Source: a virus
Reading direction: 5' to 3' (one strand)
IMG/VR virus record: IMGVR_UViG_3300045988_149609
DNA length: 64,000 nt
Shown here: in pieces, positions 15,075 to 42,936 of the stretch
Layout of the letters: every line of letters begins with the position of its first letter
Position numbering within the stretch: position 1 is the first letter of the stretch
Notes under the pieces: generated by a model
The model's database searches: none
What the model was told of the DNA's origin: nothing
The model's input: only the letters and a program-made list of their open reading frames with translations
Translations under genes and position numbers: made by a program

Positions 15075-17204
15075 TTAAAAATGTTTTACGCGATTATTTA
15101 TATCTGCTATTCTTCCTTTAGAAATACCATTTGAAACAACTCCTAAATAACCACATAATCTTAAAGTGTAATATAATTTTTTTTGATTAGTTTCACCACA
15201 ATTAGGGCAAGTCATTTTACCATTATTATCTAATTGTAGTTCTCCTTCATATCCACAACTATAACATACACCACAAGAAGTAGTATTTAACTCACAATAC
15301 ATCATGTTATCATATATACATTTTAAAACATTTAGTACTGCTTCTGGATTTTTACGTATATCTGGCATTTCTACATACGAAATTGCACCACCTGATGAAT
15401 ATTCTTGAAAAGGAGCTTCAAATTTTATTTTTGAATATCCATCAATCTTATATTCTACAGGTATATGATAACTATTAGTTATATAATCTCTATCATTTAC
15501 ATACTTTTCTATAGGAAATTGTTTTAATGCATTAGCAAATTTAGTAGTAGTATTTTCAGCAGGAGTACCATATAAAGATAAAGCTAAATTATATTTTTCT
15601 TTATTTATATTAGTTCTTTCATACATATGTTTTAGTATATCAAGACCTAATTTCTGTCCTTCTTTAGTACCATATTCTATTCCAAAATGATATACACATT
15701 CTGCAATACCCATGTAACCAATAGATGCTGAACAATATCTATCTTTTATTACTTCTTTAATTTTAGTACCTAATGGAACTCTACTAAATCCACCATAACA
15801 CCAAAGTAAAGGAGCAACATCAACTTTAGTTTCACCTATTGTTTGATAAACTTTATATTGTTCTGATGAAATCAAATCAATCATATCATCTAACTTACTT
15901 AAAAAATCATTATAATCTTTAGATTCTAATGCCAAGTAAGGTAGATTAATTGATATAACTCCAATGTTATTCCTACCCCAGAATTTATACTTGCCATCTT
16001 TGTCTTTCCAAGGATGAAGGAAGCTTCTGCAACCCATGCTTGGAAAAACGTTTCCTTCTTTATATTTCTTCATAATTTTAGCTGAAATATAATCAGGAAC
16101 CATTCTTTTACAAGTACATTCTGCTGCTAGTTTAGTTACATTATAATACTTAGTATTAGGTTCTATATTATCTTTATCAAGTACAAAAATTATCTTAGGA
16201 AATGCAGGATTAATATTATTACCATTAGGCCCTTCCATTCCTTTAATTCTTTGTTTAAGTAGTTCTTTAATTAAAACTACATTTTCTTCAAGATATTCTT
16301 CATTTTCATGAATATAACAAAAAATAGTAATAAAAGGACTTTGACCATTACTAGAATGCATACTATTAAGTTGATAAAGTAATGTTTGAATACTATCCTT
16401 TATTTCTTTATCTAACATTTCATTTAGCATTCTTTCTTTATCTTCTTTTGATACATAAGGAAAAGAACTAAGATAAGTTTTATAATGATTCTTACTAATT
16501 CTTACAAAAGGTGCTAAATGAGCAGTTGTAATACTAATTCCACCATATTGTAAACTACTTACACCTAAAATTATTTGTGTAGCAATAGTAACTGCAGTTC
16601 TTAATGAATGAGGTTTATTAATTCTTTTACCATTAAGCACTGTACCATTTTGTAACATATCATCTAATGCAAGAAGGCTACAATTTGTTTCACCTTTCAT
16701 TAATCTATAATCTAAATCATGAATGTGAATAACACCTTTATTATGTAATTCAAGTAAATAAGGTGACATCATAGTTTCCTTATATATTTTTTTACAAGTT
16801 TCACCTGCAATTAAATCTCTCATTACATTAAATTGAGTTGCATCTTTATTGCCGTTTTCAGTAGATATCTCATTAGGTATACCTGTAGCTAATTCTACAA
16901 TAGTATCATAATATTTACCATTAGTATTTGTATCTCTAATTTTAGTACGTTTAATTCTATATTGTTGATAAGAATTAGCAATAGATTGATTAATTTGAGA
17001 TAGAGATTTAATAATTAAATCTTGAATTTCTTCAACTGAAATTTCTTCTTTATCAAGAGATTGAATAGCACTACTAATAGATTGTATTATATTAATACTT
17101 AATTGTCTATTATTACAATCTAAACATTTATGAATAGCATTATCTATTTTATAAGAATTAAAATCTTCTTTTCTACCATCTCTTTTAATTACATATTTAA
17201 TCAT
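15075..17204 (-). CDS. nrdD: anaerobic ribonucleoside-triphosphate reductase
   Basis: N-terminal ATP-cone (VIKRDGRKEDF), C-terminal Zn-ribbon CGVCYSCGYEG...CPNCG and glycyl-radical motif TLRLCGYLG. Confidence 0.9.
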   Translation of the reverse strand: MIKYVIKRDGRKEDFNSYKIDNAIHKCLDCNNRQLSINIIQSISSAIQSLDKEEISVEEIQDLIIKSLSQINQSIANSYQQYRIKRTKIRDTNTNGKYYDTIVELATGIPNEISTENGNKDATQFNVMRDLIAGETCKKIYKETMMSPYLLELHNKGVIHIHDLDYRLMKGETNCSLLALDDMLQNGTVLNGKRINKPHSLRTAVTIATQIILGVSSLQYGGISITTAHLAPFVRISKNHYKTYLSSFPYVSKEDKERMLNEMLDKEIKDSIQTLLYQLNSMHSSNGQSPFITIFCYIHENEEYLEENVVLIKELLKQRIKGMEGPNGNNINPAFPKIIFVLDKDNIEPNTKYYNVTKLAAECTCKRMVPDYISAKIMKKYKEGNVFPSMGCRSFLHPWKDKDGKYKFWGRNNIGVISINLPYLALESKDYNDFLSKLDDMIDLISSEQYKVYQTIGETKVDVAPLLWCYGGFSRVPLGTKIKEVIKDRYCSASIGYMGIAECVYHFGIEYGTKEGQKLGLDILKHMYERTNINKEKYNLALSLYGTPAENTTTKFANALKQFPIEKYVNDRDYITNSYHIPVEYKIDGYSKIKFEAPFQEYSSGGAISYVEMPDIRKNPEAVLNVLKCIYDNMMYCELNTTSCGVCYSCGYEGELQLDNNGKMTCPNCGETNQKKLYYTLRLCGYLGVVSNGISKGRIADINNRVKHF

Positions 17205-19909: not shown

Positions 19910-20868
19910 AATTGTTTATTAACAATACAATCTTTAGCTATTTCAAGTAATTTATCTTGAATACTTTCATTTACCAAACCTTTTATTTTTGGTATTTGTA
20001 TTTTATAAATTGAATCTTCTTCAGTACCCATTGTGCCTTCATAAATTACTTTAGTTACATAACTACAATCAAAACCATCTTCTACATTTATAGGAATTAC
20101 ATTGTTATTTTTATCATAATTAATAATTGCCATAGGAAGATATGCACAAGTTCTTAGTTTACCATATTCTGATCTTTTTGGTACAGCGACTACATCAGCA
20201 GGATTTACTAATACAGCAAGACCTGTATCACCAAAATAATTCTTTTTAAGCCAATTAACAGACGCACAATGTAATCCAGAAGAACATTCTACATTACTAT
20301 CACAGTCACATTTACTTCTATCCAAAGTTACCATTTCACCTATTTTAATTCTAGTTGAATGAGTGTGATGATCTGTATATACACCTTCTTCATTAGTACT
20401 ATCTACATTTCTATAAGCTACAAAGAATCCACATTTTGCTATTTTCAAACCATGTAGATGTAAAAACCAATATAGATTATTTCTACAATCTTCATCAGTA
20501 TTCAATGACATCAGAGTCCAAAAATTTTGATAAGCTGTAAGTTTTAATTCATCTTTATTTAACTCTGCATCAACAATAGATTCTGCTAAATCTTGAGGTA
20601 AAGAAAGATTTGAAACATTATCCCAATAAACAACATTATCTGCAATTCGTAAGATTTTTGACTTCCTTATTTTTTCAATAAAAGATAGTACTTCTTGCTT
20701 CTTATCTAATTCTTGTTTATATTGAGGATTTACAATAGCCAATGTTTCCTCATCAGAAGTAGATTTTAGTATTTTTTCAAAATCTTTATCAGAAATAATA
20801 CTTTCAATACAAGCTCCATTTTCTAGAAAAACTACTACTTTGTTGTCAACTTTAATTATTTTTTGCAT
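19906..20868 (-). CDS. hypothetical protein coupled to GHKL ATPase and UDG
   Basis: 320-aa ORF overlapping both neighbours (ATGA-type overlaps); Cys/His-rich segment HTHSTRI...CDCDSNVECSSGLHC. Confidence 0.5.
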   Translation of the reverse strand: MQKIIKVDNKVVVFLENGACIESIISDKDFEKILKSTSDEETLAIVNPQYKQELDKKQEVLSFIEKIRKSKILRIADNVVYWDNVSNLSLPQDLAESIVDAELNKDELKLTAYQNFWTLMSLNTDEDCRNNLYWFLHLHGLKIAKCGFFVAYRNVDSTNEEGVYTDHHTHSTRIKIGEMVTLDRSKCDCDSNVECSSGLHCASVNWLKKNYFGDTGLAVLVNPADVVAVPKRSEYGKLRTCAYLPMAIINYDKNNNVIPINVEDGFDCSYVTKVIYEGTMGTEEDSIYKIQIPKIKGLVNESIQDKLLEIAKDCIVNKQL

Positions 20869-23051
20869 AACATTTTTATTAAATTATTATTTTTTATTGC
20901 TTTATATCGTAGATAATCTACTCTATAAAGTTTACTTTTTATTATTGCCATTGTAATAAGATCTTCAAGAGATTCTGTAATTAAAGGATTATATTCAATA
21001 TGATTATTTTCACAAAAAGATCTATACAAAGTAACATAATGATTTAATTGATTACTCAAATTAATTGTATATTCATCAATACCTTTACAATTATCTAGTA
21101 TCAATTTTTTATAAAATATATTGCTATTATTTACTTTATTGTAAAATAAAATTAATTTATTAAATTTATCTCTTTGTGCATAAGGTATAGTTTTCAATAC
21201 AAATTTAAGCTCCCAATTTGAAGGAAAATTTTCAGATTTAGGAAATACTTGTAACATAGATTTATATTGAATGAATACTTTATCTTTAAATAAATCTTTT
21301 TTATTAATTATACACTTTAAATTAAGATTTCTAATAGCATCTACTATTTCTTTTCTTGCTCTAAGTAAAACATAGTTCTTTATACGAGCCATATAATAAA
21401 ACTCTGTACTATCCTTCATATTTAGAAGAACAACACCTTTTTTGAACTCTTTAATCCATTTAATACAGCTTTCAAGTGTAAGAAAACGAAATTCACTTTT
21501 ATAAGAACTACTACTTTGTTGATAAACAATGAAATCTACAATACGTTTTACAGGAGGTATTTTTTGAGCTTTACTTTCTGTTACATATTTTTGAAAAGAT
21601 GAATCTGTATTTAAATCTATTATTTTAGCGGTAGATTTTATATATTCATACATATCATCTACTAATGGATCTAATTCTGTTTGCGAAATATGCTTATATA
21701 TAGAACCATGTATATATTTAATAAACTCTTCTTTTGTAAAATCTGTAAGTATTATATACGAATTATAATTTTCTTGTAACCATTCTTTTACATACGTAGT
21801 AAATCTTACATCATTTTTTAAAATAAGAATTTTCTTAAAACTATTTAATAGACATTGTTCCGCTTTATATGGTATTTTTCCTTGATAAAATCTATTATTA
21901 AAGAAAACACCTTTAATATTAATAAGTCTTGAATGAAAAAACCATTTTATGTAATCATTTAAATTACTATTTATTTCTTTATTTTTAAATGTTATTTCAG
22001 AATAATCAAATTTAAATTCATATCCTGTATTTTCAATTCTAATATTGAACTTATGATAAGTGTTACTTAAAGGTTCATATTTATAAATAGAAGATATTAC
22101 TTCATAATAATCATATAAATTATTATAATTTTTTGGAAATTTCTTTTCAACTAAAGCATTTAATTCTTCATGAGCTGCTTTAATTTTATCATTTATTTTC
22201 TTTATTGTATCATTATCATAAATAATAGATTCTCTATTAGGTGTAACATTTAATTCACCAACATTGAATGAAATAACAATTCCAGATCTATAAATATTAT
22301 GTATAAAATCTTTATTTTCTACATTTACAAATTCATCATTACATGGATAAAGAACATTTCCAAGAAGAAACTTTGAATTTACTTCTATTGAAGCTGCTGC
22401 AAAATTATTAAATCTTTTTATTTTAACATCATTAATCTTAGTTTCTATTCCATCAATATAGACATTAGGAAAAAATATAAGACTTGAAAGAGCTTTCATA
22501 TAGGAATAAATTCCTTTTATGTTCTTTATTGTAACTTCGACACCATTTTTTTCAGTAGTTTCTTTTTGTAATATTAAATTATTAGTAATTGCGTTTCCAC
22601 TTTTTACCATAATATAATAATAAGCAATACCATTATAATATGAAGTTACATAGACAGTATTACTACAAGCTAATGCTGAAAATCTTCCTAAGCCAAATCC
22701 ACCTATATATTCATTACTATCTCTTTTAGTACTACTACCAATATTACAAAAAACATTTTTAAATCTTTCAGGACTTAGACCTGTACCAAAATCTCTAATA
22801 CTAATTTCCCAATCATTTTGTAAATGATTAAATTTGATAATAACAGGAATATTTGTAGTATTTGCTTCTACATGACTATCCCAAGCATTACTAACAATTT
22901 CTCTTATAAATGATTGTTCTGGATTTGAATATAAATTTGAAGATAATAAAGTTGTAATAATATTTAAGTTCTTTGGATCTATTGAAGTTTTAAATTCTTT
23001 AATATCACCTATTGTTTGAATATTGTTTTGTTGTATACTATCAATAATCAT
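20856..23051 (-). CDS. Hsp90/MORC-like GHKL ATPase domain protein
   Basis: N-terminal Bergerat-fold motifs EIVSNAWDSH (N-box), RDFGTGL (G1), IGGFGLGRFSALA (G2; compare Hsp90 GQFGVGFYSA); long C-terminal region of unknown fold. Confidence 0.6.
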   Translation of the reverse strand: MIIDSIQQNNIQTIGDIKEFKTSIDPKNLNIITTLLSSNLYSNPEQSFIREIVSNAWDSHVEANTTNIPVIIKFNHLQNDWEISIRDFGTGLSPERFKNVFCNIGSSTKRDSNEYIGGFGLGRFSALACSNTVYVTSYYNGIAYYYIMVKSGNAITNNLILQKETTEKNGVEVTIKNIKGIYSYMKALSSLIFFPNVYIDGIETKINDVKIKRFNNFAAASIEVNSKFLLGNVLYPCNDEFVNVENKDFIHNIYRSGIVISFNVGELNVTPNRESIIYDNDTIKKINDKIKAAHEELNALVEKKFPKNYNNLYDYYEVISSIYKYEPLSNTYHKFNIRIENTGYEFKFDYSEITFKNKEINSNLNDYIKWFFHSRLINIKGVFFNNRFYQGKIPYKAEQCLLNSFKKILILKNDVRFTTYVKEWLQENYNSYIILTDFTKEEFIKYIHGSIYKHISQTELDPLVDDMYEYIKSTAKIIDLNTDSSFQKYVTESKAQKIPPVKRIVDFIVYQQSSSSYKSEFRFLTLESCIKWIKEFKKGVVLLNMKDSTEFYYMARIKNYVLLRARKEIVDAIRNLNLKCIINKKDLFKDKVFIQYKSMLQVFPKSENFPSNWELKFVLKTIPYAQRDKFNKLILFYNKVNNSNIFYKKLILDNCKGIDEYTINLSNQLNHYVTLYRSFCENNHIEYNPLITESLEDLITMAIIKSKLYRVDYLRYKAIKNNNLIKMLCKK

Positions 23052-34223: not shown

Positions 34224-34253
34224 AAAGCAGAGAGCAATCTCGCTCCCTGCTTT
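34224..34253 (-). terminator. GC-rich hairpin closing the GC-elevated island (possibly bidirectional)
   Basis: AAAGCAGAGAGC-aatctc-GCTCCCTGCTTT, a 12-bp stem with one mismatch; T-rich on both flanks. Confidence 0.5.
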
Positions 34254-34579
34254 AATGTGTTTTTAATAGTAGATTTTAGCTATTGTTTCAATACCTTTGA
34301 GAACTAATGCATCTGTAGCTTCCTCAAATTCTGGATCTATTTGTTCATGTGTTATTTTAGCACAAAGTTTTTCAAAAGTATTGAAATGATAAATTTGTAA
34401 CACTTCATAATCTTTGAAAATAAAAATTGTATAATCTGACATAATTTAATTTGTTTTTTGAGTTTCTTTTAATAATGTTAATAGATTAGCTTTAAATTTA
34501 TCATCTTTTGTATCATAACAAGCTACAAAACGGTTAGTTGTGAATACCCACCAACCTGATCTAATATTTAATGGATTCA

Positions 34580-34810
34580 TTAGTAAGTGTAGATTTTGAA
34601 CCCTTCATACATGGAGAGTTCGGATTCTTGAATGTTAACTATCTTGCCAAAGACTTTAGTATAATATCTCTTTTTGACAATAATCGTCTTAGAGATTTCT
34701 ACTATTGTTTGGCTTTGATGGTTTCGTGCTAAATCATTATGATGAGCACGAATAGAGGATTCATAGCCCTCTGAGCTACAAATCCTCTGTGAGTTAAAAC
34801 GCTTTCTCAT
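34580..34810 (-). CDS. hypothetical protein (GC-elevated island)
   Basis: ORF track, 76 aa; lies in GC-elevated segment. Confidence 0.4.
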   Translation of the reverse strand: MRKRFNSQRICSSEGYESSIRAHHNDLARNHQSQTIVEISKTIIVKKRYYTKVFGKIVNIQESELSMYEGFKIYTY

Positions 34811-34813
34811 GGT

Positions 34814-35053
34814 TTACCAAGACTCAATTTTAATAATTACATCTAAATCATATTGAACCCATGCTTGATCTGAGTAAATAATGAGATCTTTATTTTCTAA
34901 TGAAAACTCAAAAGGGTATTCAAAAAAGTCATTATTTTCTAGCTCGGTAAAAATTTTAATATCGTGATGTAATTTTTGAGCCGATGTCATGGCTTGATAT
35001 ATATTATCTGCTGTCATTTTGTTTTGTTTTAGTCTATAAAGATTGTAGTACAA
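34814..35053 (-). CDS. hypothetical protein (GC-elevated island)
   Basis: ORF track, 79 aa. Confidence 0.4.
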   Translation of the reverse strand: MYYNLYRLKQNKMTADNIYQAMTSAQKLHHDIKIFTELENNDFFEYPFEFSLENKDLIIYSDQAWVQYDLDVIIKIESW

Positions 35054-35316
35054 GATTTGCCTTGATATTCTTCATATACATAATCACTCTCCTCTTCAAG
35101 GAGTTTCTCCATATGGAAAACATCTGACATATCATCTGTTTTACCATCTACATTACAGATAAACTCTGCAATTTCATGGAGAGTGAGCTTACCATAAAAA
35201 GTAAACTCTGTATAGAAAGTTTTATTGTGCATACATGCAAGTTTTGCTATTCTGCATACATCTAGTAGCCAAATGGCATAGTCAAAGTTTTTATTTTTCG
35301 TTACCATCTTCTTCAT
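35029..35316 (-). CDS. hypothetical protein (GC-elevated island)
   Basis: ORF track, 95 aa. Confidence 0.4.
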   Translation of the reverse strand: MKKMVTKNKNFDYAIWLLDVCRIAKLACMHNKTFYTEFTFYGKLTLHEIAEFICNVDGKTDDMSDVFHMEKLLEEESDYVYEEYQGKSCTTIFID

Positions 35317-35491
35317 CTAATTTAATGAATAAAACACCAGCAGCTAAGAATGCTGCAATAAAAATTATCATGTAGGTACCTGCAACATAGCAATCTCTTG
35401 CTATTATTGACGCGATACCTGAAACTGCTACTATGAGCAGTAAAAATATGATTAATATGTATGGTAGATAGAATTTCATTGTTGTTAGCAA
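35291..35491 (-). CDS. small two-helix membrane protein (GC-elevated island)
   Basis: 66-aa ORF with two hydrophobic helices and acidic C-terminus. Confidence 0.4.
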   Translation of the reverse strand: MLTTMKFYLPYILIIFLLLIVAVSGIASIIARDCYVAGTYMIIFIAAFLAAGVLFIKLDEEDGNEK

Positions 35492-35561
35492 TTTAAATAT
35501 TAAAAAAAATGCATCCTTTATTCTGTTGCCAAGAAAAGGATGTGAAAACTCCGAAACTTAT

Positions 35562-35933
35562 TCAATTTAAACCATATTTAGCACGTATGAGATCTTCTTT
35601 ATAGATCTCTGGATAGTATGTACGTAGAACATAGTCTATGTACAACTTTGTGTTATACGGTAATAATTGAAGTATTTCTTCTTTGTTATCCCAAACATAG
35701 CCACTATTGACCATGTTTGTTATAACGTTCTCCAAATGCTTCATGGTGTTTCCACCAAGCACTTGGAGAATGTCTAATGCTAAAGAAGCATTAGGTGTAA
35801 CAACATTGGACAATGCTTTATAAGCATCGTCAAAATTTGTATATGTTACATTCTCAATGAAATAATAAGTTGTCATGATAAACAAATGTTTTAGTTGTTT
35901 GGCAATATCACCATTATCCTCTGTATTTCTCAT
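35562..35933 (-). CDS. hypothetical protein (GC-elevated island)
   Basis: ORF track, 123 aa; chosen over antisense ORF 35875..36249. Confidence 0.45.
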   Translation of the reverse strand: MRNTEDNGDIAKQLKHLFIMTTYYFIENVTYTNFDDAYKALSNVVTPNASLALDILQVLGGNTMKHLENVITNMVNSGYVWDNKEEILQLLPYNTKLYIDYVLRTYYPEIYKEDLIRAKYGLN

Positions 35934-36032
35934 GCGGGCTTGGAACCGCCAAAGGCTACATTATAATGGAGTAGTAATATCTCTTGACATATCTCTTTCA
36001 AGATATGAAAGAAATAAGTCAAGAGATGGTAA

Positions 36033-36230
36033 TCATTTAATAATGAGTTTTGCATTCAATGAATCCATATCTATTCCATGGATTTCACCATATTTATCAG
36101 CTAAATCTCTAAGTGTCTCTACAGCTTCAAAATACTTACGTTTTTCTTCTGGTGTTGCAAGATTTGTGTTTAACAATTTATTTGCATATTTAGTATATAC
36201 TAATGCGCGCATACCTGTTATGTTTCTCAT
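36033..36230 (-). CDS. hypothetical protein (GC-elevated island)
   Basis: ORF track, 65 aa; begins MRNIT like the next gene (MRNTE). Confidence 0.4.
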   Translation of the reverse strand: MRNITGMRALVYTKYANKLLNTNLATPEEKRKYFEAVETLRDLADKYGEIHGIDMDSLNAKLIIK

Positions 36231-36342
36231 TTTTTTTTATTTTTTATAAGTTGTTATTAAAGTTCTCACTCTGAGTTCTAACCTCAGTACAATAGTTTTA
36301 TTTAAGTGAGAATGGGACTTTTTGCTAGTTGTTTAAAAGCCC

Positions 36343-36376
36343 CCAAAAAAAACCAACCAGCACTGTTGTGTGCTGG
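36343..36376 (-). terminator. intrinsic terminator of first minus-arm gene
   Basis: CCAGCAC-tgttgt-GTGCTGG perfect stem 13 nt after stop of 36389..36718, followed on minus strand by an 8-T run (A8 at 36345-36352 on plus). Confidence 0.7.
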
Positions 36377-36388
36377 CTGGTGTGGTGC

Positions 36389-36718
36389 TTACAGTTCGAT
36401 AGTAAGCACAGAAGTGCCTTTCGTACCTGTAACTTCGCCATTGCCTATGCAAAGAAGTGGCACCCAAGATGCGCCATTATCCTGCGAACATTCGCAGAAA
36501 TAGACTGCATCTTTTTTGCCATCTTGCAAGGCTGCTACTGCATCTTCTGTGCAATAGCAATGACTGACGATGTTTTCGTGATTGTCAAGGTCTTGCTTAT
36601 TAGCATAAAAGTAAGCACAGTGCTTGTTGTTGTCATTCTCACGAACATTGCACCATTTGATGCCCTGTTCACGAAGAGAAAGAAAACTCATGCTGTTGCG
36701 GAATTTAGCTGTTGCCAT
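36389..36718 (-). CDS. Cys-rich hypothetical protein, first gene of minus arm
   Basis: 109-aa ORF in roughly 50% GC DNA, 8 Cys (CAYFY, CYC, CEC, LLC); followed by a canonical intrinsic terminator; preferred over two overlapping plus-strand ORFs with junk-like hydrophobic translations. Confidence 0.5.
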   Translation of the reverse strand: MATAKFRNSMSFLSLREQGIKWCNVRENDNNKHCAYFYANKQDLDNHENIVSHCYCTEDAVAALQDGKKDAVYFCECSQDNGASWVPLLCIGNGEVTGTKGTSVLTIEL

Positions 36719-37008
36719 TTTTGTATTGTATTAAGAAGGAAGCCCCCTAATTGATTGTCAGCCAGTTGAGCGGGGGCATTAACCCAAACGGCCGAAGGCT
36801 GGGGGAGGTATTGGGTGGCTATCCCTCGCTCTCTTTAATATAACAATCTTCAAAAATTTTAGAAAAAAAATTATTTTTTACTTCTGTTTTAATAGAGTAA
36901 AATTATAATTTAAATACCATTCTAAAAGATAAGAAGAAAAGAAGTAGGGAAGTCATTGATTATCAGATAGTTATAACATTTTAATGTTGTGTATTACATA
37001 ACTAATTG

Positions 37009-37110
37009 TTGTCATATACTCAACTAATTATGGAGAAATACTCAACTTATACTAACTATTTTTGTCATGTTTATATCATTAATGTAATTATAACTTACAA
37101 TGTTTGTCAC
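37009..37110. repeat. iteron-like short repeats in the arm-switch intergenic region
   Basis: TTGTCA(T/C) at 37009, 37062 and 37104; ATACTCAACT twice (37016 and 37039); AACTAATT thrice. Confidence 0.4.
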
Positions 37111-37118
37111 TTTATTTA

Positions 37119-37126
37119 TATCTTTG
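37119..37126 (+). promoter_or_regulatory. Bacteroidota -7 promoter element TATCTTTG
   Basis: TAnnTTTG 26 nt upstream of ATG 37152. Confidence 0.35.
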
Positions 37127-37151
37127 CAATAAATTAAAATATAATGTATAT

Positions 37152-37586
37152 ATGTATCAAACTAAAGTCAATAAAGACTATTCTTTAATTCATAATGAAA
37201 CAGGAGAAATTATTGAATTTAAACAAACTAAAAAAGTAAAGCAAGAAGAGTTTATGCTTTTATTTTTAGCTGCTACTGAATTGCTTAATCAATTAGATGG
37301 AACTTCAATTAAAATTCTTATTTTTTGTTGGAAATATTCAACATTTAATAACAATGTAGAAAAGGAAGGAAACTTAGTTTATAATAATGTTTACTTTAAA
37401 GAAAAGCTTAGAGAAAGTGGATTAACTTATTCAGATAATACAATTAATATTTATATAGGTAGATTGTGTAAAAAAGAATTACTTATTAAAAAAGGTAGAG
37501 GCGTTTATATGTTAAATCCTAAATACTTCTTTAAAGGTACTTTGACGGATAGAAGTAAATTAAGAATGACTTTAGAAACAGAATAA
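37152..37586 (+). CDS. putative DNA-binding (winged-helix-like) protein, first gene of plus arm
   Basis: ORF track frame 37104..37586 begins with TTG; first ATG is 37152 (MYQTKVNKD...). C-terminal RGVYMLNPKYFF resembles wHTH regulators/initiators. The -7 motif TATCTTTG lies 26 nt upstream. Confidence 0.45.
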   Translation: MYQTKVNKDYSLIHNETGEIIEFKQTKKVKQEEFMLLFLAATELLNQLDGTSIKILIFCWKYSTFNNNVEKEGNLVYNNVYFKEKLRESGLTYSDNTINIYIGRLCKKELLIKKGRGVYMLNPKYFFKGTLTDRSKLRMTLETE

Positions 37587-41263: not shown

Positions 41264-41371
41264 CACTGCTTCTGTGAAGAAGTAATGCAAGTTAAATGGT
41301 TATTGGGGATAGTTTATATTATCTTGAAGGTTCTAGATATAAACTTTTATGTAAGATTAAACCTTCATATT

Positions 41372-41443
41372 TGGCTAATAGTTCAATGGTTAGAACAGTA
41401 GACTGTTAATCTATTAATCTAAGTTCGATTCTTAGTGTCCCAA
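41372..41443 (+). tRNA. tRNA-like, anticodon GTT (Asn) with non-complementary acceptor stem
   Basis: Canonical D arm (GTTC/AATGGTTA/GAAC), anticodon arm GTAGA-CTGTTAA-TCTAT and T arm CTAAG-TTCGATT-CTTAG were folded by hand, but the 5' TGGCTAA and 3' TGTCCCA do not pair; may be a pseudogene or my boundary is wrong. Confidence 0.35.
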
Positions 41444-41447
41444 CAAT

Positions 41448-41525
41448 ATTTCGGTAGCTCAGATGGTTAGAGTACCAGAGAGAGAGGAACTCTGGAGGTC
41501 ATTGGTTCAAATCCAATCTGAAGTA
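41448..41525 (+). tRNA. tRNA-like element with 9-nt purine-only anticodon loop
   Basis: Acceptor ATTTCGG/CTGAAGT (2 GU wobbles), D arm GCTC-AGATGGTTA-GAGT and T arm ATTGG-TTCAAAT-CCAAT are canonical; the anticodon stem CCAGAG/CTCTGG encloses AGAGAGGAA with no U33. Confidence 0.35.
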
Positions 41526-41544
41526 TTATTTTATGAAAGGCCCA

Positions 41545-41604
41545 TAGTCCCTGAATATAAATAACTTAGCTGCAGCAATATTGTTATTATTAATTCAAAC
41601 TATG
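41545..41604 (+). repeat. tRNA-leader repeat copy 1
   Basis: Shares tagtccctga, ataact(t)agc, atattgttat and ttcaaactat blocks with copy 2 at 41784-41839; ends 7 nt before tRNA-Thr. Confidence 0.55.
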
Positions 41605-41610
41605 GGATAT

Positions 41611-41683
41611 GCTTCTATAGCTCAGTTGATAGAGCAATGGTTTTGTACTCCATGTGTCATAGGTTTGAATCCTATTAGAAGCT
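41611..41683 (+). tRNA. tRNA-Thr (anticodon TGT)
   Basis: Hand fold: perfect acceptor GCTTCTA/TAGAAGC, D arm GCTC/GAGC, anticodon loop TTTGTAC, T arm ATAGG-TTTGAAT-CCTAT. Confidence 0.75.
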
Positions 41684-41688
41684 CAAAT

Positions 41689-41761
41689 GACGCTATCTTC
41701 TAAATGGTTAGAAAACAAGATTTTCAATCTTGTAATTTGGGTTCGATTCCCAATGGCGTTA
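41689..41761 (+). tRNA. tRNA-Glu (anticodon TTC)
   Basis: Acceptor GACGCTA/TGGCGTT (2 GU), D arm TTCT/AGAA, anticodon stem CAAGA/TCTTG with loop TTTTCAA, T arm TTGGG-TTCGATT-CCCAA. Confidence 0.6.
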
Positions 41762-41783
41762 CAATTTAATATTTAATTCCTTG

Positions 41784-41839
41784 TAGTCCCTGATGTAGGA
41801 TAACTAGCCATGGTGATATTGTTATCATTTCAAACTATA
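41784..41839 (+). repeat. tRNA-leader repeat copy 2
   Basis: See copy 1; ends 8 nt before tRNA-Arg. Confidence 0.55.
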
Positions 41840-41846
41840 AGGTTAA

Positions 41847-41920
41847 GCATCAGTAGCTCAACTGAATAGAGCAACGCCCTTCTAAGGCGTGGGTTGTGAG
41901 TTTGAGTCTCACCTGATGTA
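41847..41920 (+). tRNA. tRNA-Arg (anticodon TCT)
   Basis: Acceptor GCATCAG/CTGATGT, D arm GCTC/GAGC, anticodon stem ACGCC/GGCGT with loop CTTCTAA, T arm GTGAG-TTTGAGT-CTCAC. Confidence 0.8.
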
Positions 41921-41938
41921 CTATGAAAAATTTAAACT

Positions 41939-42064
41939 ATGAAAGATTTAGACACAAATAAAAAAGAAGATTTAAAATTTCATGAATATAAAATTGTTAT
42001 AGAAGATGGAATAAATTTAGATGAATTAATACGTTTTACAAAAGAATTATTTATTAAAAAATAA
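41939..42064 (+). CDS. possible 41-aa small protein inside tRNA array
   Basis: ATG..TAA frame MKDLDTNKKEDLKFHEYKIVIEDGINLDELIRFTKELFIKK between tRNA-Arg and tRNA-Lys; below ORF-track size cutoff. Confidence 0.2.
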   Translation: MKDLDTNKKEDLKFHEYKIVIEDGINLDELIRFTKELFIKK

Positions 42065-42109
42065 ATTAATAATTATTTTTAAAGTCAGTATTTTGAATAA
42101 TACTTATTA

Positions 42110-42182
42110 GAACTGTTAGCTCAATTGGTAGAGCATCACACTTTTAATGTGAGGGTTATGGAATCGTACTCCATACAGTTCA
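42110..42182 (+). tRNA. tRNA-Lys (anticodon TTT)
   Basis: Perfect acceptor GAACTGT/ACAGTTC, D arm GCTC/GAGC, anticodon stem TCACA/TGTGA with loop CTTTTAA, T arm ATGGA-ATCGTAC-TCCAT (atypical T loop). Confidence 0.75.
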
Positions 42183-42190
42183 CAAGAATA

Positions 42191-42265
42191 GGACTCTTAG
42201 CTCAGATGGTTAGTAGCAACAAACTCATAATTTGAAGGTCATAGGTTCAAATCCTATAGAGTCCA
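42191..42265 (+). tRNA. tRNA with CAT anticodon (elongator Met or Ile2)
   Basis: Perfect acceptor GGACTCT/AGAGTCC, anticodon loop CTCATAA, T arm ATAGG-TTCAAAT-CCTAT; anticodon stem lacks the three G-C pairs of initiator tRNA. Confidence 0.7.
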
Positions 42266-42267
42266 CT

Positions 42268-42534
42268 ATGTGTTATATAGGAAAATTAATTAAAAATAAT
42301 ACAGGAGTAAGTTCAAAGAATTTCTTCTTAGTAGTAGTAACTATAATTGGTTGTATATTACTTATCATACCTGCTATTATATTAGCTATTGAAGTATTTT
42401 ATAATCATACAATTGCTACAAATTTAGATGGAATGGCAGCATATATTGCATCAGTAGCAGCAATATTTACATCTGCAGGAATTACTAAAGCTTGGTCAGA
42501 AAGATATGAAAACAATAAAACAAAAGAGAATTAA
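42268..42534 (+). CDS. small two-helix membrane protein (holin-like topology)
   Basis: Track ORF 42232..42534 begins inside the tRNA; first ATG after the tRNA is 42268 (MCYIGKL...), with two hydrophobic helices. Confidence 0.45.
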   Translation: MCYIGKLIKNNTGVSSKNFFLVVVTIIGCILLIIPAIILAIEVFYNHTIATNLDGMAAYIASVAAIFTSAGITKAWSERYENNKTKEN

Positions 42535-42820
42535 AATATTTAATACTACATATACTATTAAATATATAGATAAAATTGAAAATAACGAAAATAAATTTGT
42601 GTTTGGTAGAACAAATGCTATAGATAAACATATTTATATTGCTACTAAAAATGATAATAACAAAAAGTTATCAAATGTTGAGATAAAAACAACTCTTTAT
42701 CATGAATTAATTCATGCTATTCTTTCTGAAGGAGCTTATGGAAAAGAATCAGATAATGAACCTTTAGTAGAATGGATAGCTAAATGTTTAGTACAACTAA
42801 ATACTAATAATATAATATAA
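42506..42820 (+). CDS. small HExxH zinc-metallopeptidase-like protein
   Basis: TLYHELIHAILSEGAYG contains an HExxH motif in a 104-aa ORF. Confidence 0.45.
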   Translation: MKTIKQKRIKIFNTTYTIKYIDKIENNENKFVFGRTNAIDKHIYIATKNDNNKKLSNVEIKTTLYHELIHAILSEGAYGKESDNEPLVEWIAKCLVQLNTNNII

Positions 42821-42831
42821 TAAAATAAAAT

Positions 42832-42917
42832 GGCTTCATGGTGAAAATGGTAGACACGAAGGACTTAAAATCCTTTGGGCAGAAATGTCCGTGCGAGTTC
42901 GAGTCTCGCTGAAGCTA
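42832..42917 (+). tRNA. tRNA-Leu (anticodon TAA), class II with long variable arm
   Basis: Acceptor GGCTTCA/TGAAGCT, 3-bp D stem, anticodon stem AAGGA/TCCTT with loop CTTAAAA, 17-nt variable arm, T arm GCGAG-TTCGAGT-CTCGC. Confidence 0.8.
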
Positions 42918-42936
42918 CTTAATTAAAATAAAAAAT

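Follow-up and report, generated by a model that had tools for sequence, protein, structure and literature searches.

Introduction

CrAss-like phages are among the most abundant viruses of the human gut, and their early gene expression is little known. In phi14:2, the virion RNA polymerase makes the early genes without a recognisable promoter motif, and early non-coding RNAs are abundant (10.1101/2020.03.07.982082). Like phi14:2, crAss001 has early operons that are made by the virion polymerase and carry no recognisable promoter motif, along with abundant early non-coding RNAs; for phi14:2, neither an early promoter motif nor a regulatory RNA has been defined. Here, we describe a GC-rich island at 34224–36850 (minus strand) of a 64,000-nt crAss-like phage sequence (IMG/VR record IMGVR_UViG_3300045988_149609; this whole stretch is called the window throughout). 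Its GC peak proved to be a conserved cassette that combines an RNA motif, a candidate for a new one, with the gene of an orphan protein, o109, and has a likely twister ribozyme nearby, and not a horizontally acquired moron, as an initial annotation of the window had proposed. On the whole, the observation behind that annotation was largely real, yet overstated; the interpretation was right in part, and the feature is more interesting than ordinary, although its reading needs correction. On balance, we lean towards regarding the GC peak as a high-output, stability-optimised and probably early expression cassette for an arms-race protein, and the five rival explanations taken up below all rank under it.

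Structures that act as 5′ stabilisers or operators are familiar from phage and bacterial mRNAs, for example the pseudoknot in the T4 gene 32 leader and the 5′ stem-loop of ompA. The hypervariable early or accessory regions of tailed phages are typified by first genes of the T7 gene 0.3 type and by anti-defence islands. The locus described here resembles the gene 32 and ompA structures in that a structured element heads a single, specific mRNA whose expression is probably high, with gene-linked conservation and a free start codon, but differs from them in the sequence and fold of the leader, a long invariant C-rich internal loop and, in one clade, a competing helix. With the T7 0.3-type regions it shares promoter-proximal small, mostly orphan open reading frames (ORFs) of mosaic presence and a first gene in divergent alleles; in contrast to them, o109 is set in near-invariant RNA elements, its codons lie ∼7 standard deviations (sd) off the genome, and no known anti-defence domain was detected. 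The early region of phi14:2 likewise has abundant or conserved non-coding RNA features, but these are long intergenic transcripts of a marine phage, whereas we find a short leader fused to a coding gene (10.1101/2020.03.07.982082).

Base composition of the island

The GC content of the window is 25.8%, lower than the 28–30% given initially, and its 2.6-kb windows average 25.7% (sd 2.3). Composition is indeed not uniform: at 33.6% GC, the island is higher than any other 2.6-kb stretch of the window. The 40–50% GC that had been ascribed to all of 34.26–36.85 kb applies to 36343–36850 (45.1%), the sole part of the island in this range, and not to 34500–36300 (31.5%). The ten GC-richest 500-nt windows all fall within 36051–36501, and our recount of 36361–36420 gave exactly the 30 G/C in 60 nt reported before. 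Two divergent arms meet at ∼36.85–37.1 kb, and the island is, by its position, the presumed promoter-proximal end of the minus, or replication, arm.

A structured RNA motif precedes the first gene of the arm

The leader upstream of o109 is a single-copy, predicted structured RNA motif that is listed in no database. It consists of the following elements:

36834–36870, minus strand: AT-rich block upstream of the leader (TTTTTTTTCTAAAATTTTTGAAG...TATTAA), the presumed promoter region
36762–36837, minus strand: core of the leader RNA motif, a ∼76-nt 5′ leader scoring 93.7 bits with covariance model R1
36831–36823 with 36776–36768, minus strand: helix P1, with a conserved A (A·C) mismatch or bulge
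J1/2, minus strand: AUARCC
36816–36811 with 36787–36782, minus strand: helix P2, ACCCAA/UUGGGU
36810–36800, minus strand: 11-nt C-rich loop, UACCUCCCCCA, consensus UACCNYCCCYA
36799–36791, minus strand: P3 hairpin, GCC-UUC-GGC
J2/1, minus strand: AUAAY

Covariance model R1, run on the loci retrieved, found exactly one copy in each of 24 sources (66–97 bits) and no second copy elsewhere in the 64-kb window. The two pairings noted initially, GCC-UUC-GGC and GCCCCC...GGGGGC, are both in the sequence, and the suspicion that the leader is a conserved structured RNA is supported by compensatory and G·U changes in its helices. P1, for example, occurs as GAGCG/CGCUC, GAGUG/CGCUC, GAGGG/CCCUC, GCGUGG/CCAUGC and AUGA.AGGG/CCCU.UCAU. 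In the alignment fitted to the model, 83.7% of the cells were paired, compared with at most 57% when the partners were slid. The covariation score of the leader was reached in 6 of 500 shuffles, and cognate pairing of the P1 strands beat non-cognate pairing (p = 0.02).

The motif is linked to a single gene family. A degenerate DNA pattern of the core retrieved seven IMG/VR contigs (sequences other than the window are denoted by L numbers where they have to be told apart). In each of the six examined, a homologue of the small protein was located 88–115 nt downstream, including in contigs that the protein search had missed, and in the seventh, L019, the o109 homologue was ∼85 nt downstream. The motif precedes this one protein family even at ∼30% protein identity. 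Furthermore, the ∼95 nt upstream of the ORF are 92–99% identical in relatives whose ORFs are 67–77% identical. The AT-rich block is kept in the W-type relatives, and distant ones show a related ATTG..TAT..ATGAG pattern; a search of the window for a second occurrence of the block as a repeated promoter motif found none. In L018 (3830–3900), GATATTAAnATGAGTGA, comprising the promoter-proximal block and the P1 5′ strand, is tandemly duplicated upstream of the leader.

No Rfam family matched the leader at gathering or permissive thresholds (Rfam 15, with an E-value limit of 10 for the window and of 0.01 for 12 relatives), and a literature search on non-coding RNAs in crAss-like phages returned nothing relevant. 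L025 and L026 speak against another register of P2, in which CCCA/UGGG would form with the second C run. The C-rich loop could form a pseudoknot with the 3′ G run in W (the window), L010 and L016; this pairing would be weak in L018 and is impossible in the L019 type.

All wobble variants in the leader are G·U on the sense strand, which argues for a structure at the level of the RNA and not of DNA or an antisense transcript. This observation bears on the idea that the element acts as DNA, either as a hairpin promoter of the virion RNA polymerase, as in phage N4, or as part of a replication origin near the RepL-like gene. Its location at the point where the arms diverge, ∼150–270 nt from iteron-like repeats and the RepL-like gene, would suit such a role, as would the preference of the crAss-like virion polymerase for single-stranded templates and the lack of a known early promoter motif. 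However, the sense-strand G·U variants correspond to A·C mismatches on the template strand, and orientation and distance to the ORF are fixed in all lineages, including those in which no RepL-like gene is seen beside the element. We therefore consider a DNA element improbable.

o109 encodes an orphan protein and deviates from the genome in composition

36389–36718, minus strand: o109, gene for a 109-aa orphan protein with 7 Cys; 43% GC, GC content at third codon positions (GC3) 0.42, highly structured mRNA

The Cys-rich ORF of 109 aa that the initial annotation had placed first in the arm is present as o109. On the evidence of its sequence, it is a protein-coding gene: it is under purifying selection, with a ratio of non-synonymous to synonymous substitution rates (dN/dS) of 0.19–0.27 at dS values of 1.0–1.6, its indels are in frame, and its predicted product is foldable (AlphaFold2 (AF2) model with a predicted local distance difference test score (pLDDT) of 82). 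That the ORF is really a non-coding RNA was ruled out by the lack of a shared structure and by dN/dS. Homologues were found only in uncultured crAss-like contigs. A first search gave nine clusters and a profile search of 1.84 billion representatives four relatives, whereas a broader profile recovered 32 clusters, which fall into two subfamilies with ∼30% identity between them. Seven related loci reach far enough upstream to show the neighbourhood of the gene, which in each of them opens its arm and diverges from the RepL-like gene; the remaining related contigs begin too near o109 to reveal the upstream neighbour. Neither o109 nor the other small ORFs (ten in all) had a significant match in Pfam or PHROGs, and no homology of o109 to characterised anti-defence or host-takeover families was detected.

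The composition of the gene sets it apart from its surroundings in every lineage: o109 homologues have 39–49% GC in loci of 25–37% GC. GC3 is 0.42 in o109 and 0.28–0.57 in the homologues, compared with 0.116 ± 0.043 in 55 long genes of the window and 0.195 in the capsid gene, and the codon composition of o109 is ∼7 sd away from the rest of the genome. In addition, the coding region of the o109 mRNA folds far more stably than shuffled controls, with a z-score of the minimum free energy (MFE) of −4.6 to −5.05, compared with −0.72 ± 1.33 for background genes. Eight of nine W-type alleles have z-scores of −4.3 to −8.9, and the conserved property of this mRNA is its stability, not one particular fold. 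Codon usage is known to differ between early and late phage genes (PMC5683454). As a clean natural example, o109 lends itself to the question of why a phage would recode a single gene, candidate reasons being the host tRNA pool before phage tRNAs are available, mRNA stability and evasion of RNA-targeting defence.

The cassette is inherited vertically and carries exchanged alleles

The 3′ flank of o109 comprises the following elements:

36343–36381, minus strand: intrinsic terminator after o109, 12-bp stem (36381–36352) followed by U8, the top match of the terminator scan
36262–36344, minus strand: structured spacer after the terminator, with two conserved hairpins before the next ORF
∼36344–36313, minus strand: spacer hairpin 1, GGGGCUUUU-loop-AAAAGUCCC
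∼36312–36262, minus strand: spacer hairpin 2, nested, UUCUCACU...AGUGAGAA

Scanning the window for terminators yielded 11 terminator-like sites, compared with 1.3 expected, and recovered the strong intrinsic terminator described earlier for this gene, at 36381–36352. It is kept in relatives with compensatory changes in the stem. From +1 to +85 past the stop codon, relatives with ORFs of 67–77% identity are 84–97% identical. The spacer hairpins are conserved even beside differing neighbour genes, and L007 has a G·U to A-U change in the stem of the first. Another small RNA, a processing element and a promoter element are possible roles for them. In L016 and L017, the usual hairpin is replaced by a GC-rich stretch with a tRNA-like T arm (GGTTCAAATCC) ∼70–150 nt past the stop codon of the homologue, for which ARAGORN makes no tRNA call.

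The sharp step to 45% GC and the possession of its own terminator had suggested that the segment is a recently acquired foreign cassette. Yet gene and leader are equally GC-rich in more than 20 related contigs, including distant crAss-like lineages; in all relatives found, the segment occupies the same site with the same composition, with dS of at least 1 between alleles and no decay towards the composition of the genome. As the composition of o109 persists through saturating synonymous change, it is maintained by selection and is not the decaying trace of a transfer. Searches for a source were negative as well: there were no homologues outside the phage group among the 1.84 billion representatives, none in a leader-motif scan of bacterial genomes, where the matches in L020–L022 were chance hits in high-GC genomes and that in L023 was likewise due to chance, and none in GenBank phages by megablast of the island, tblastn of three protein subfamilies or blastn of the motif. 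In IMG/VR, the exact leader pattern and the W-type protein profile matched nothing. A recent foreign origin is thus very improbable, and we conclude that the GC peak is a conserved, vertically inherited cassette.

The pattern of divergence within the cassette is uneven. L003, L005 and L013 are 91–98% identical to the window in the AT-rich upstream DNA, in the leader and, where the contig reaches that far, in the stretch past the stop codon. Their ORFs, in contrast, share just 67–76% identity; at the protein level, identity falls as low as 49%, and dS is ∼1 or saturated. Near-identical flanks around old, diverged ORFs point to old alleles that were exchanged between near-identical backbones, and the invariant RNA elements may have acted as homology arms in this exchange. 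The swapped old alleles suggest that the o109 protein is under frequency-dependent selection, as a factor in host takeover or anti-defence might be. Their position between invariant flanks marks this protein as a likely arms-race factor, and hence as a lead for anti-defence discovery.

The same pattern is relevant to whether the leader is an autoregulatory operator, that is, whether the o109 protein binds its own 5′ untranslated region (UTR) and so represses or stabilises its mRNA, in the manner of T4 gp32, RegA or the ribosomal-protein leaders. The strict co-occurrence of RNA motif and protein family in every lineage found, with one copy per genome, speaks for an operator. However, the RNA core is near-invariant while the protein falls to ∼30% identity, and alleles swap behind identical leaders. 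A binding pair would be expected to co-vary, so this mismatch in rates counts against an operator, which we judge unlikely, though deserving of attention.

A competing helix in the clade of the window

36742–36777, minus strand: helix Pc, GCCCCC (36777–36772) paired with GGGGGC (36747–36742)

The GCCCCC...GGGGGC stem, here called Pc, is specific to the clade of the window. Its 5′ strand is the 3′ strand of P1, and the two helices are mutually exclusive. Pc occurs in four covarying versions (GCCCCC/GGGGGC, UGCCCCUG/CAGGGGCA, GACCUCCC/GGGAGGUC and GUCCCCUG/CAGGGGAC), which indicates that both helices are conserved in the clade. Six leaders were folded. Pairing of the G run gave the more stable state in all of them, by 2–7 kcal/mol over the P1 state in five and by 8 kcal/mol in L017.

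Such an arrangement invites comparison with riboswitches, and the initial annotation had raised a riboswitch or thermosensor as a possibility. In this interpretation, P1, P2 and P3 would form the aptamer, and the choice between P1 and Pc would be the switch or conformational sensor. Like riboswitches, the leader has a conserved, aptamer-like core in a 5′ UTR and alternative helices that share one strand. Its internal loops are invariant; P1 and Pc covary, but P2 and P3 do not vary and the statistics are modest; and the two states lie within 2–7 kcal/mol of each other except in L017. Unlike riboswitches, it belongs to no known class, with no Rfam family even at E ≤ 10, and neither the gene nor its context hints at a ligand. 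A recognisable expression platform was not found: no consistent U tract follows Pc, so it is no terminator, and Pc does not mask the start codon either, since the AUG of o109 lies ∼24 nt further on in an A-rich, unstructured stretch. Moreover, Pc is absent from the L019, L025 and L026 lineages, which retain the core. A switch is therefore distinctly unlikely.

A proposed expression cassette

Returning to the expression cassette that we favour, its parts would be the structured leader, the GC-rich o109 gene with its base-paired coding region, and the strong terminator with a conserved 3′ hairpin. Both ends of the mRNA would be protected and its body structured, with the AUG left free in the A-rich stretch. 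Such a design could give a high protein yield from few, long-lived transcripts before the phage tRNAs and other phage functions become available. The codons of o109 are presumed to be host-like, whereas the other genes have a GC3 of ∼0.12 and the phage carries its own tRNAs. For the leader, we regard a cis-acting role in stability or translation as most likely. Since it is near-invariant next to a fast-changing protein, its partner is expected to be highly conserved, such as the host machinery or the phage RNA polymerase, and is unlikely to be the o109 protein itself. Early timing is suggested by the position of the cassette, by what is known of phi14:2 and crAss001 and by a terminator-plus-promoter boundary at 34.2 kb (see below). 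The promoter-proximal module for early expression and host interaction that was envisaged initially is plausible in these terms: its host-interaction part accords with the deeply diverged ORF alleles between near-identical flanks, and its timing stands as a presumption.

Several observations weigh against this proposal. P2 is invariant or almost so, as is P3, and neither contributes covariation; in L029–L032, P1 is either weak or paired in another register; and the overall covariation statistics are modest, the sequences being related. The strong folding of the coding region is absent from L018, L019, L025 and L026 and hence not a property of the whole family, and no common structure was found in the coding region, where RNAalifold gave −25 kcal/mol without a covariation term. 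The AF2 model of o109 had no informative fold match, and the role of the protein is a guess. Finally, the invariance of the flanks could stem from recent recombination instead of function.

A bolder possibility is that the leader represents a functional RNA class not described before, which interacts with a strongly conserved partner and serves crAss-like phages as an expression device for their first gene. The host ribosome, the virion RNA polymerase and a small ligand are candidate partners; in the case of the ribosome, the loop sequence ACCUCC, a copy of the 16S anti-Shine–Dalgarno sequence, could serve Shine–Dalgarno-independent recruitment in Bacteroidota. Should this doubtful but far from negligible idea hold, a previously undescribed device for delivering a fast-evolving counter-defence protein would consist of the leader, the terminator and, between them, the structured mRNA with its GC-recoded sequence. 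Under the expression-cassette reading as well, an unlisted single-copy RNA motif tied to one orphan protein family across divergent lineages offers a handle on early infection.

A predicted twister ribozyme overlaps a downstream start codon

35913–35967, minus strand: predicted twister ribozyme of type P1, without P3 (match to RF03160)
35979–36027, minus strand: imperfect 21-bp hairpin just 5′ of the twister, found by folding

Downstream of o109, a permissive Rfam scan found a match to the twister family RF03160 with 44.9 bits (E = 5e-8 when computed for the region, 1e-6 over the entire window). The score is below the Rfam gathering score of 67.2, which we attribute to the missing optional P3 stem. 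The stems of the cmscan alignment appear in canonical order (P1 AUUA/UAAU, P2 UGUA/UACA, P4 GCG/CGC), and MFE folding independently recovers all three. The nucleotides conserved in twisters (UAA, GC, GU.CCAAGCC, AAA and GAGG) are all there. In L1 and L4, GAGGA and GUUCC replace the consensus GAGGG and GUCCC in a compensatory manner, so that the T1 pairing GGG/CCC becomes GGA/UCC; T2 is GC/GC. We take these to be the exact bases paired in T1 and T2 of this match. The two pseudoknots are defined as L1–L4 (T1) and L2–L4 (T2), and P3 is optional in twisters (PMC6154101). Overall, the match resembles RF03160 in P1, P2 and P4, the U-A cleavage site, the GC of L2, the CCAAGCC of L4, the AAA linker and the GAGG of L1, in the preserved T1/T2 complementarity and in its phage gene context, which is common for small ribozymes. 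It differs in lacking P3, present in 78% of twisters, in three extra nucleotides in the P4–P2′ linker and in its overlap with a start codon. We conclude that 35967–35913 is likely a twister ribozyme, its score sub-threshold but the match convincing.

The predicted cleavage site (U35963/A35962) is 29 nt upstream of the ATG (35933) of the downstream gene o123, which lies in the P4–P2′ linker, and the twister's 3′ half doubles as codons one to seven of o123. This overlap explains the 'MRNT' start of o123, which, with an MRNI start, had been read as a signature of paralogues; the two are not paralogous. Cleavage would cut a polycistronic RNA ahead of the o123 AUG and thereby uncouple the fates of the upstream and downstream mRNAs. 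A predicted twister overlapping a start codon in a phage operon is a concrete setting for a class whose roles remain largely unknown. The 36050–35905 region folds with −48.1 kcal/mol (z = −6.5). Rfam matches to snoRNA and microRNA families were dismissed as due to chance or to a hairpin, the spurious microRNA matches being caused by the 21-bp hairpin. The same twister copy is found only in L003, L004 and L011, where it travels with o123. In L004 (∼1590–1625), the twister directly follows the end of the o65 homologue as the result of a deletion; AUUG has replaced the P1 5′ strand there, and can still pair, and the base before the cleavage site has become G. No paper was found in a literature search pairing crAss-like phages with twister ribozymes.

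Searches around the twister and hammerhead ribozymes of phage contexts have yielded new self-cleaving classes in the past. It is known that small ribozyme classes cluster in the vicinity of phage genes (PMC4604425). The leader of o109, a compact RNA with invariant loops ∼800 nt from the twister, could in principle be such a class. Most lineages with the motif, however, have no twister nearby, the secondary structure of the leader is a simple nested hairpin, and its sequence suggests no cleavage site, which leaves a ribozyme in the leader scarcely credible. We retain the reading of the leader as part of an expression cassette.

Small ORFs downstream of o109 and the end of the unit

Where six further small ORFs had been listed, we counted eight on the minus strand between o109 and the second hairpin (o65, o123, o66, o95, o79, o76, o44 and o59):

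36033–36230, minus strand: o65, 65 aa, accessory, only in L003, L004 and L011
35562–35933, minus strand: o123, 123 aa, homologues in L001, L003, L004, L010 and L011, GC3 0.30
35291–35491, minus strand: o66, 66 aa, two hydrophobic helices, conserved in most W-type relatives
35029–35316, minus strand: o95, 95 aa, 71–98% identical in W-type relatives, GC3 0.30
34814–35053, minus strand: o79, 79 aa, accessory, only in L001, L002 and L011
34580–34810, minus strand: o76, 76 aa, 81–100% identical in all W-type relatives, GC3 0.38
34263–34580, minus strand: o44 and o59, 44 aa and 59 aa, accessory, patchy distribution, GC3 0.11–0.13, equal to that of the genome
34197–34253, minus strand: terminator-like hairpin and promoter match; 13-bp hairpin (34253–34224) with a weak U tract, TTTACA-17-TATAAT at 34225–34197

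Comparison of the related loci showed that the set of small ORFs differs among relatives, as the initial annotation had proposed checking. The content is mosaic: o66, o95 and o76 are widespread, and o65, o79, o44, o59 and o98 are patchy. The two-helix membrane peptide noted before corresponds to the 66-aa ORF, in which two stretches are hydrophobic. Within the island, conservation is highest for o76, which has no family match; it is 90% identical in L016 and L018, where o109 is just 28% and 54% identical. GC3 values of o76 (0.38), o123 and o95 (both 0.30) are intermediate between those of o109 and the genome.

The second hairpin of the initial annotation, at 34224–34253, was recovered by the scan; calling it strong overstates it, the U tract being weak. 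TTTACA-17-TATAAT, with 11 of 12 positions the best sigma-70-like promoter match of the region, directly abuts it, and L002 shows the same arrangement of hairpin and promoter. Hairpin and promoter at 34.2 kb are likely an operon boundary, at which the unit would end with the hairpin, to be followed by the sigma-70-like promoter.

Genome setting

The plus arm carries the RepL-like gene, a lysozyme-like gene, eight tRNAs and the genes for the terminase, the portal and a crAss-type major capsid protein. In the minus arm, the small ORFs are followed by helicase, DNA polymerase, rIIA-like and NrdD genes. The family search matched the major capsid protein, portal and terminase to crAss-type families; among deposited capsid proteins, the closest have only 58% identity and belong to cr112_1 and cr106_1, both uncultured crAss-like phages, and to IAS virus. 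Within the replication arm, the rIIA-like protein and the NrdD-like anaerobic ribonucleotide reductase are encoded at 20856–23051 and 15075–17204 (minus strand), respectively, and the latter fits an anaerobic gut host. The eight tRNA genes form a cluster at 41371–42918 (plus strand; Asn, Pro-AGG, Thr, Glu, Arg-TCT, Lys, Met and Leu-TAA), consistent with the extremely AT-rich codon usage of the phage; a match to 'Plastid-ycf2' turned out to be the antisense strand of tRNA-Met.

For the RepL-like gene (37104–37586), the Pfam match to RepL is on the homologues. In the 250-nt gap between leader and RepL-like gene, we observed iteron-like direct repeats at 36985–37028 and 37051–37109 (plus strand), namely two 22-nt units in tandem (TGTTGT..ACTAAT) and two further units of 17 nt (..TTTGTCA). 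They may mark a replication origin. In several IMG/VR contigs, the leader motif is close to a contig end, on its upstream side: at position 52 in L030, ∼580 nt from the end in L029 and ∼2 kb from it in L027 and L032. In the 100-kb W-type contigs, it is 5–8 kb from one end. These locations could mark physical genome termini and hence the end that enters the cell first.

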